A stretch of 64,000 nucleotides of DNA from Escherichia coli. GTDB lineage: Bacteria; Pseudomonadota; Gammaproteobacteria; Enterobacterales; Enterobacteriaceae. The notes beneath the pieces are model-generated. The model was not told the origin of the DNA, searched no databases, and saw only the letters and a program-made list of their open reading frames with translations. The translations under genes and the position numbers were made by a program. The stretch lies in NCBI RefSeq assembly GCF_003334785.1, contig NZ_QOWV01000001.1; one strand, written 5' to 3'. Shown here in pieces: positions 31,957-34,883 of this stretch (position 1 is its first letter; the number at the start of each line of letters is the position of its first letter).

Positions 31957-32106
31957 GACTCCTCCAGTGAGAAAATAGAGCAAAAAGATAAGTATAGATG
32001 CTGGAGGAGGGGCGATTTTAAATGAGAGGAATCTGGTGTGCCTCCCTTTCGGGTGAAAGGGAGGAAGGGATATTAAGCAGGTTGCTGACAACGTGCGGGC
32101 TTTTTT

Positions 32107-32206
32107 GCCGGATGCGGCGTGAACGCCTTATCCGTCCTACAAGTTCATGCAATTTTAATAAGTTGCCAGATATCCTGTAGGCCTGATAAGCGTAGCGCAT
32201 CAGGCA
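32107..32206. repeat. REP/BIME cluster downstream of glnQ
   Basis: gccggatgcggcgtgaacgccttatccgtcctac and gtaggcctgataagcgtagcgcatcaggc. Confidence 0.85.
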
Positions 32207-32216
32207 ATGTGTCTTA

Positions 32217-32939
32217 TTAAGAGACGTGCTGCAAAAATTCCTGCAAGCGCTGGCTCGGCGGGTTCTTGATCAACACCTGCGGATTGCCATCTTCCGCAAT
32301 CCGGCCTTTGTCGATAAAGATCAGCCGCGAAGCTACTTTCTCGGCAAAACCGATTTCGTGGGTCACGATCACCATCGTCATCCCTTCTTCAGCCAGATCC
32401 TGCATAACCTTCAGCACTTCATGGCGCAGTTCCGGGTCAAGAGCGGAAGTCGGTTCATCAAACAGCATCATTTTCGGCTTCACCGCCAGCGCGCGGGCAA
32501 TCGCCACACGCTGCTGTTGACCACCAGAAAGTTCGGAAGGGTAGTGATGTGCACGTTCTGCCAGACCGACTTTCGCCAGCAGCTCACGTGCCAGTTTTTC
32601 CGCCTCTTCTTTGTTCGCGCCACGCACGCGTAGCGGGCCAAACATGACGTTTTCCAGCGCTGTCAGATGCGGGAAGAGGTAAAACTGCTGGAACACCATA
32701 CCTGCTTCCTGGCGAATCAGGCGCTCGTCAACTTTCGGATCGTTAACCTTCAGGCCATCGACAATCAGATCGCCGGAGGTGATTTCTTCCAGTTTGTTGA
32801 TGCAGCGCAGCAGGGTCGATTTACCGGAACCGGACGGCCCGATAATCACCACGACTTCGCCCTGGGCAATGTTCAAATCGATATTGTGCAGCACCTGGGT
32901 TGGGCCAAAGTGCTTGGAGACGTTTTTAAATTCAATCAC
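32217..32939 (-). CDS. glnQ: GlnQ, glutamine ABC transporter ATP-binding protein (240 aa)
   Basis: Walker [10 protein letters not shown]; signature LSGGQQQR. Confidence 0.96.
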
Positions 32940-33595
32940 AGGATTTTCATCCTTCTTTCCAGACGACGCAGAATAAAGCTCAGCACCAGGGTAATAATCA
33001 GATAGAACACCGCCACGGCGCTCCAGATCTCAAGGGCGCGGAAGTTACCGGCAATAATTTCTTGCCCCTGACGGGTCAGTTCCGCCACGCCGATCACAAT
33101 AAACAGCGAGGTGTCTTTAATGCTGATGATCCACTGGTTACCCAGCGGCGGCAGCATACGACGCAGTGCCAGCGGTAAAATGACGTAGCGAATGGTTTCC
33201 CAACGTGAAAGACCGAGCGCCAGTCCTGCTTCACGAAAACCTTTGTGGATAGACAGCACCGCACCACGCGTGATTTCCGCAATATACGCGCCGGAGTTGA
33301 TCATGATGGTGACCACCGCCGCAGTAAATGGGTCGATGCGTAAGTCGTTAAACGCCATCGGCAGGGCGAAATAAATAAACATCACCTGGACGACGATAGG
33401 TGTGCCGCGGATCACTTCAATAAAGACCAGCGCGACGTGGTTGGCTATCCAACCTCCGAAGGTGCGTGCAAAACCTGCCAGCAATCCGATTACCAGACCG
33501 CCTGCCAGACCGAGGACCGAAATCCACAGGGTCATTTTGGCACCTTCAATCAGAAGCGGAATGGCAGGCCAGATGGCACTCCAGTCAAACTGCAT
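32936..33595 (-). CDS. glnP: GlnP, glutamine ABC transporter permease (219 aa)
   Basis: ORF 32936..33595 minus; overlaps glnQ start by 4 nt. Confidence 0.96.
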
Positions 33596-33645
33596 ATGTT
33601 GTTCCTGTTACCGTGGTGTAAATAATCAAATTCAGGGTAATTAAT

Positions 33646-33702
33646 GGCCCCGGAGCGGGTTTGCGCCCCTCACCCTAATCCTCTCCCCATAGGGGAGAGG
33701 GA
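33646..33702. repeat. Box C-like repetitive element in glnH-glnP intergenic region
   Basis: gcgcccctcaccctaatcctctccccataggggagagg with perfect inverted repeat cctctcccc/ggggagagg; resembles the enterobacterial Box C family (from memory). Confidence 0.6.
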
Positions 33703-33733
33703 ACTGCCAGTGCGTTTTACAGGTGTAGCGTTA

Positions 33734-34495
<762 letters not shown>

Positions 34496-34534
34496 CTATC
34501 CACGGGACGATCCCCTGCGTGACATTCACATATA

Positions 34535-34810: not shown

Positions 34811-34842
34811 GCAAAACAAAACGGCCTCCTGTCAGGAAGCCG
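34811..34842 (-). terminator. Putative dps terminator
   Basis: Imperfect hairpin cggcctcctg-t-caggaagccg, followed on the minus strand by a T-rich tract. Confidence 0.5.
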
Positions 34843-34883
34843 CTTTTATCGGGTACTAAAGTTCTGCACCATCAGCGATGGAT

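Follow-up and report, generated by a model that had tools for sequence, protein, structure and literature searches.

A BoxC repeat between glnH and glnP of Escherichia coli forms a hairpin beside an in vivo RNA 3' end: a candidate REP-like stabiliser of glnH mRNA

REP/BIME sequences are said to act as stabilisers of mRNA at the malE–malF and hisJ–hisQ junctions, reportedly in work by Newbury et al. from 1987 and Stern et al. from 1984. In another operon of this general kind, gltIJKL, the spacer between gltI and gltJ gives rise to the SroC sRNA. The BoxC family of intergenic repeats, also known as PIT or TMECO, was reportedly described by Bachellier et al. in the 1990s and by Hoyne & Maher in 2000 and 2002. 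To our knowledge, BoxC has been known for some 30 years without an assigned function, and published attention has gone to DNA triplexes and genome instability.

For Holder et al. (2015, PMC4666352), BoxC, the PIT elements of Hoyne & Maher and their own motif, TMECO, are one and the same; their list has 23 strict copies in MG1655, the copy between glnH and glnP not among them, and they found the loci to be unassociated with gene function, distance or operon arrangement. No general role of the family in gene expression was found in that study, nor by Hoyne & Maher as cited there; the elements are reported to lack promoter and terminator activity and to have no effect on RNA polymerase, and mRNA stabilisation is not among the activities that the summary there names as tested. 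From a different direction, Dar & Sorek (2018, PMC6061677) described steady-state termini that lie immediately past stable stem-loops devoid of uridines as trimmed ends protected from exonucleases. Here we describe a BoxC copy inside the glnHPQ operon whose hairpin sits directly before such a terminus.

The window (the whole 64,000-nt stretch of DNA analysed, in whose positions all coordinates are given unless K-12 is named) matches E. coli K-12 at this locus, a 73-nt query for the element being 100% identical to MG1655, and a K-12 coordinate (NC_000913.3) equals the window position plus an offset of 813,524. The operon runs on the minus strand, with glnH (periplasmic glutamine-binding protein, 33734-34480) as the upstream cistron, glnP (permease, 32936-33595) downstream of it and glnQ (ATPase, 32217-32939) last. 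Between glnH and glnP lies a spacer of 138 bp (NC_000913.3 847,120-847,257). Its glnP-proximal part is a single-copy, highly conserved leader (33596-33654, minus strand), at least 99% identical in 5,305 of 5,421 records, which carries the Shine-Dalgarno sequence AGGA of glnP at 33603-33606 (minus strand); the 69 nt of spacer beside the BoxC occur at one place per genome. Canonical REPs stand at the far end of glnHPQ and a BoxC between its cistrons. The REPs, two in inverted orientation that form a BIME, follow directly after the glnQ stop codon (GCCTGATGCGCTACGCTTATCAGGCCTAC at 32177-32205 and GTAGGACGGATAAGGCGTTCACGCCGCATCCGGC at 32107-32140, minus strand), and a sub-threshold Rfam match to naRNA4 (32076-32137, E = 5e-4) overlaps the second of them.

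The repeat belongs to the BoxC family. An HMM of ten other K-12 copies, all solo type-A copies taken with their flanks (the same input served for the alignment, and the glnH–glnP copy was excluded from the HMM), was run with nhmmer and gave a single match in the window, 33713..33655 on the minus strand, at E = 7.3e-12. An earlier note on this DNA, made from its letters, had called the element "Box C-like", and this label is correct. The unit is a slightly decayed type-A element of 59 nt (33655-33713, minus strand; GCACTGGCAGTT CCCTCTCCCC TAT GGGGAGAGGA TTA GGGTGAGGGG CGCAAACCCGC), the only BoxC within the 64 kb and intergenic; 42 of 52 positions agree with the K-12 type-A consensus, and the roughly 14 nt that precede the core in the family consensus are present as well. 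The limits first proposed for the repeat, 33646-33702, do cover the hairpin (the string quoted with them is 33663-33700 of the plus strand), but the true unit, at about 33655-33713, reaches 11 nt beyond them on the glnH side, and some 9 nt at their left end (33646-33654) belong to the single-copy spacer and not to the repeat. That other copies should exist elsewhere in the genome, on which the same note had made its reading depend, is borne out: every one of the 5,426 complete E. coli genomes gives matches to the 73-nt query, at a median of 13 places each (range 1-26).

The copy shares with the family the order C-block, loop, G-block, TTA, G-block, the 5' flank of about 14 nt, a unit length of about 56-59 nt, an intergenic position and dispersal in many copies, and it differs in several respects. 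A regular-expression search for the strict TMECO pattern, CCCTCNCCC-N3-6-GGGNGAGGG-N3-GGGNGAGGG, found no match anywhere in the window, whereas relaxing one base, the last of block 2, yields a match at 33667-33701 (minus strand), where the copy reads CCCTCTCCC-CTATG-GGGAGAGGA-TTA-GGGTGAGGG; block 2 is thus GGGAGAGGA and not GGGNGAGGG, one base off. The base responsible is the A at 33679, where a G-to-A change has cost the copy both the strict pattern and one base pair of its stem, now 9 instead of 10 bp. Since the second loop is TTA, the copy is of type A (type B has CCG). Its C-block is the perfectly pairing CCCTCTCCCC instead of the commoner, mismatched CCCTCGCCCC, its locus is very stable where the family has been described as unstable, and a role at RNA 3' ends lies outside the published description of the family. 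The third block, GGGTGAGGGG (33666-33675, minus strand), is needed by the DNA-triplex model only.

Two other BoxC-like copies at which RNA 3' ends map (632,098+ and 4,231,270-) are also missing from the published list of 23, which indicates that the strict pattern undercounts the family. Canonical copies also occur between pstA and pstB, genes of another ABC transporter (NC_000913.3 3,908,495-3,908,530, antisense to the pst mRNA), and inside an operon between yihS and yihR (4,070,452-4,070,487); at these operon-internal pst and yih copies no Term-seq end was seen in the conditions sampled.

The perfect 9-bp inverted repeat noticed earlier between glnH and glnP stands as described, with arms at 33680-33688 and 33692-33700 that are 100% complementary and enclose a loop of 3 nt. 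On the mRNA strand the hairpin reads CCUCUCCCC-UAU-GGGGAGAGG: its 5' arm CCUCUCCCC (33692-33700, minus strand) lies in the BoxC C-block, its 3' arm GGGGAGAGG (33680-33688, minus strand) in the first G-block, and the loop between them (33689-33691, minus strand) is UAU in K-12 and UCU or GCC in other E. coli. This hairpin is the main feature of the structure predicted for the spacer (MFE -45.2 kcal/mol), a structure that is only moderately unusual for its composition as a whole (z = -2.5) and in its variable part (z = -1.9); the local hairpin segment is predicted at about -20 kcal/mol. A second helix, in which UUAGGGUGA pairs with UUACCCUGA, is also predicted, and neither of its sides varies. 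An Rfam search of the spacer returned no match. A perfect inverted repeat of 9 bp is not rare by itself: 16 matches, at about 9 loci, occur in the window, where Markov-1 random sequence gives 1.9 ± 1.7. It is membership in the family that exceeds chance.

In MG1655, Term-seq places an RNA 3' end at K-12 847,200 on the minus strand (Adams et al. 2021 eLife, PMC7815308, Supplementary file 1), with 30,332 reads in LB at OD 0.4, 130,459 in LB at OD 2.0 and 42,295 in M63. The end corresponds to 33676 (minus strand): the stem ends 4 nt and glnH 58 nt before it, glnP begins 80 nt after it, and the third BoxC block lies downstream of it. The label "orphan" that it bears in PMC7815308 reflects only its distance from the stop codon, which exceeds 50 nt. 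Its published sequence context is ...CCCTCTCCCCTATGGGGAGAGGATT[A]GGGTGAGGGG, where the register of the 61-nt string (3' end at position 51) was verified with the thrL row. No U-tract follows the stem, the tail being AUUAGGGUGAGGGG / AUUAGGGUG, and a scan of the minus strand of the spacer for intrinsic terminators found none. No Rho-termination region is listed at 846.7-847.2 kb in Supplementary file 2 of PMC7815308, a thresholded list in which absence is weak evidence, and the TERMITe supplements hold no entry for the site.

At the other end of the operon, downstream of the BIME, a hairpin CCUCCCUUU-CACCCG-AAAGGGAGG (its stem also given as CCTCCCTTT-CACCCG-AAAGGGAGG; 32041-32064, minus strand) is followed by an RNA 3' end at 32037 (K-12 845,561, minus strand; 29,295 reads in M63, PMC7815308), again 4 nt past the stem and with no U-tract. 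Since this distal end is listed too, glnH-only and full-length transcripts coexist. Upstream of the operon, a further Term-seq end lies at 34533 (K-12 848,057, minus strand; 47,250 reads in the LB OD 2.0 sheet), 53 nt before the glnH start and immediately after TGGCACGATTTTTTCAT, which resembles the -24/-12 element of a sigma-54 promoter; it may mark an upstream transcript halting at promoter-bound polymerase. The dps terminator has a Term-seq end at 34816 (K-12 848,340), and the weak Rfam match to ctRNA_p42d that falls on it (34811-34846, minus strand; E = 0.007, below threshold) is almost certainly spurious.

The glnH–glnP copy is not the only one at which a 3' end maps. At least six coincidences of a BoxC with a Term-seq 3' end are observed, where 0.2-1.1 would be expected by chance given 3,110 ends in total (P 2e-7 to 8e-4). 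The primary end of lldD at 3,781,065 (+) lies 4 nt past the stem of a BoxC in antisense orientation, and the end at 3,959,467 (-) lies 4 nt past that of a type-B copy in sense orientation, both U-less; the end at 4,231,270 (-) is 3-4 nt past the stem of a degenerate copy, and those at 632,098 (+) and 624,567 (-) are about 10 nt past theirs. Because ends occur at BoxC in both orientations, we take the hairpin, and not the third block, to be the active module at the RNA level.

The arrangement resembles REP/BIME at malE–malF and hisJ–hisQ, as it too is an intercistronic, GC-rich repeat hairpin past the periplasmic binding-protein gene of an ABC-transporter operon, with a 3' end at the base of the stem; most other Enterobacteriaceae, moreover, hold a REP-like hairpin at this very position. 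It differs in having neither the REP consensus nor the CTAC/GTAG tail. With the protective stem-loops of Rho-dependent transcripts (Dar & Sorek 2018, PMC6061677) it shares a terminus immediately past a stable stem-loop without uridines, but the BoxC is inside an operon and not at its end, no Rho region is listed there and the downstream sequence is G-rich. As in gltIJKL, an RNA 3' end and a stable RNA species fall between the binding-protein and permease genes of an amino-acid ABC operon; unlike SroC, the glnH 3' UTR fragment has no U-tail, no Rfam match and no sign of being an Hfq-binding sRNA.

We consider it reasonably probable that the hairpin blocks 3'-exonucleases and so defines a stable glnH-only mRNA, in the manner of a REP-type stabiliser. 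The lack of a U-tract, the reported lack of terminator activity in PIT elements, the lack of a listed Rho region and the termini described by Dar & Sorek together make an exonuclease barrier of the REP kind the most likely interpretation. In such a scheme, the C-block and first G-block of the BoxC would fold on the glnHPQ mRNA into the 9-bp GC-rich hairpin with no U-tract after it, which would hinder enzymes that degrade in the 3'-to-5' direction. Transcripts that are cleaved beyond this point, or whose synthesis stops there, be it in the leader of glnP or within glnPQ, would be trimmed back to the hairpin, and the product, ending 4 nt past the stem, would survive as a stable message for glnH alone. 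The 847,200 end would then be caused by the hairpin, and arise by trimming rather than by termination; the abundance of glnH mRNA would be uncoupled from that of glnPQ, and the ratio of GlnH to GlnPQ protein may shift with it. The suggestion in the earlier note that the hairpin stabilises the upstream glnH message fits the published data in this respect, the end 4 nt past the stem being reproducible across three conditions.

The element has a well-defined history within the species. Its locus is intact in 5,401 of 5,426 E. coli genomes (judged with a 381-bp query across the spacer, of which 80% or more is matched, at 95% identity or more in all but one), and BoxC at glnH–glnP is fixed in E. 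coli. The roughly 25 genomes without an intact locus include FORC_042 (NZ_CP025318.1), in which an IS26 transposase gene begins about 10 bp after glnH and the spacer and glnP no longer follow. No REP-type spacer allele was found in any complete E. coli genome, and the idea that presence of BoxC is polymorphic within E. coli was rejected on that ground. Eight E. coli alleles were compared, a small sample in which relatedness inflates the apparent invariance of the stem: both stem arms are unchanged in all eight, and variation falls in the loop, in the 5' flank and in the third block, the last of these being mutated in B2 strains (GGGTGAAGGG) and 1 nt shorter in O157:H7. The G-to-A change at 33679 is common to all sampled E. 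coli alleles. The locus L015, from "E. coli" E69, has a BoxC at the same site that matches strict TMECO, has a 10-bp stem and agrees with the consensus at 49 of 52 positions; judged by its nucleotide identity of about 94%, E69 represents a sister lineage of E. coli. Because this orthologue matches the strict pattern, the miss in the window goes back to a single later substitution.

Orthologous loci from 80 other species were collected with GlnP as query, at 3.6 kb per locus. BoxC is absent from 78 of 78 extracted glnH–glnP spacers of relatives, and one further locus, L015, has it; among the spacers examined, the repeat is confined at this position to E. coli and one sister lineage. A hairpin is nevertheless always there: all 79 enterobacterial spacers, the window included, contain a strong simple hairpin (predicted best dG -14.9 kcal/mol or lower, median -21.1), and the variable parts of the spacers are much more stable than their dinucleotide shuffles (median MFE z = -3.5; in 74 of 78, at most 5 of 100 shuffles do as well). 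These hairpins fall into at least six unrelated sequence families, namely REP-like, CAGGGGCG...CGCCCCUG, a long Klebsiella stem, a Serratia type, a Cedecea type and BoxC. The REP-like form, GCCCGGyrG...CCGGGC, is found in E. albertii, E. whittamii, the divergent Escherichia L012 (91-94% identity), Citrobacter, Salmonella arizonae and Enterobacter, with CTAC directly after the hairpin in 20 spacers; in other genera the name "REP-like" is given from the form and the CTAC tail. Across genera, conservation of sequence is limited to the last 35 nt or so before the glnP start, a block that is the validated target of the sRNA GlnZ. Spacer length is 75-168 nt, apart from 466 nt in Intestinirhabdus alba and 232 nt in Serratia sp. 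H1w. A hairpin whose position is kept while its sequence is replaced from species to species offers a clear-cut case of selection that acts on structure and not on sequence.

As relatives carry a REP-like hairpin at this position and no complete E. coli genome has one there, the most likely course in the E. coli stem lineage is that BoxC took over from an older hairpin: a type-A copy entered the glnH–glnP spacer in the ancestor, displaced the REP-like hairpin and then decayed slightly. The sequence GCTCCGGGGCC, 3' of the BoxC, was considered as a remnant of the 3' arm of the old REP (GCTGACCGGGCC in L012) and set aside, the resemblance being weak.

The best-surviving alternative, which we think unlikely but not negligible, is that the element is a neutral passenger: a dispersed repeat in a permissive spacer that does nothing useful for glnHPQ, its 3' end being an inconsequential decay intermediate. 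Term-seq ends can indeed be inert intermediates of decay, and BoxC copies in general show no link to gene function, distance or operon arrangement and have no reported promoter or terminator activity. The copy is also decaying, being one base off the strict pattern and mutated in its third block in B2 and O157, and polymorphism is greater in the BoxC part (at least 99% identity in 2,337 of 5,442 records) than in the leader next to it (the 5,305 of 5,421 given above). However, this decay spares both arms of the stem; the element is fixed in a locus that is intact in nearly every genome, with a REP-type allele in none; a strong hairpin recurs at the same position in all 79 spacers despite the changing sequence family; and the 3' end is abundant in three conditions.

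We regard as improbable, and as weaker than a passenger, an attenuator of transcription, in which the hairpin, alone or with Rho, would terminate a fraction of polymerases and so lower transcription of glnPQ. The end does come right after a GC-rich hairpin, a U-rich, terminator-like tail follows the hairpin in 14 of the 79 spacers, and BIME/REP are cited by Dar & Sorek (2018, PMC6061677, their reference 32) as sometimes attenuating through Rho. Yet in E. coli the tail after the stem is the one given above and the scan found no terminator on the minus strand; PIT/BoxC elements are reported in Holder et al. to have neither terminator activity nor an effect on RNA polymerase; no Rho-termination region is listed at the site, and the sequence downstream is G-rich rather than C-rich, which makes for a poor rut site; and the end lies at +4, as against the 7-9 nt typical of intrinsic terminators. 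The other half of the earlier proposal, that the hairpin attenuates read-through, is for these reasons disfavoured.

An explanation at the level of DNA is very improbable. It holds that, while the DNA is replicated or transcribed, the three blocks fold as an intrastrand purine-motif triplex and make the genome locally unstable, with no role in RNA; the family does form triplexes in vitro, its loci are reported to be more variable than controls (Holder et al. 2015, PMC4666352), and the HMM match places the glnH–glnP copy in it. Against this, the strict triplex pattern fails in block 2, and block 3 is damaged further in B2 and O157, variants that would, from the sequence, weaken triplex formation; the locus is extremely stable, with the 5,401 genomes collinear; in vivo DMS footprinting gave no support for a stable triplex (Holder et al. 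2015, PMC4666352); and a triplex would leave the RNA 3' ends in both orientations unexplained.

The spacer does contain a regulatory site of another kind. Nucleotides 6-15 of the sRNA GlnZ, GUUGCCGUGG, are complementary to CCACGGUAAC at 33607-33616 (minus strand), just 5' of the Shine-Dalgarno sequence; this is the longest complementarity to GlnZ, and it lies outside the BoxC, 60 nt downstream of the 3' end. Repression of glnP by GlnZ has been validated. That the repeat itself forms part of the GlnZ target, or of an Hfq-dependent site controlling glnP, is the least credible reading and already largely refuted, for although repression of glnP by GlnZ does go through the spacer, and RIL-seq and MAPS give signals over glnH–glnP, the best complementarity is outside the BoxC, both GlnZ papers put the site next to the RBS/SD and the target block is conserved in species without BoxC. 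Control by GlnZ is, given where the complementarity lies, a separate feature that does not involve BoxC, and part of the glnP-specific control is already explained by its site. As a side observation, K-12 GlnZ (429-622 of our locus L100, minus strand) has a REP within it (GCCGGAUGCGACGCAAAUGCGUCUUAUCCGGCCUAC), which is probably among the strain-specific "insertions" of the GlnZ papers.

Returning to the hairpin as an exonuclease barrier, glnH would be shielded by it from decay begun downstream, for instance by GlnZ pairing at the ribosome-binding site of glnP. In Salmonella, a pulse of GlnZ lowers glnP and glnQ more than 4-fold, and glnH is not named among the reduced genes, in keeping with a hairpin at this position that insulates glnH.

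More tentatively, and with somewhat less confidence than we have in the stabiliser at glnH itself, we can envision that the BoxC family in general works chiefly through RNA, its hairpin defining and protecting 3' ends in either orientation and the third block being dispensable, and that the glnH–glnP spacer is a selected "hairpin slot" refilled in the course of enterobacterial evolution by one repeat family after another (REP-like, terminator-like, BoxC). What is new here is modest: BoxC hairpins can be linked to RNA 3' ends, and hairpins of one family have given way to those of another at a fixed position. Nothing in it overturns current understanding, and the biology is ordinary. BoxC copies coincide with 3' ends at glnH and in at least five other places; were the hairpin the cause, the family could be given a simple, REP-like role at the level of RNA. 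In glnHPQ, the hairpin would then preserve glnH mRNA while GlnZ represses glnPQ from a site 60 nt downstream, which would round off the account of uneven expression inside this operon. And should the spacer indeed be such a slot, dispersed repeats would be recruited interchangeably as intercistronic stabilisers of mRNA.
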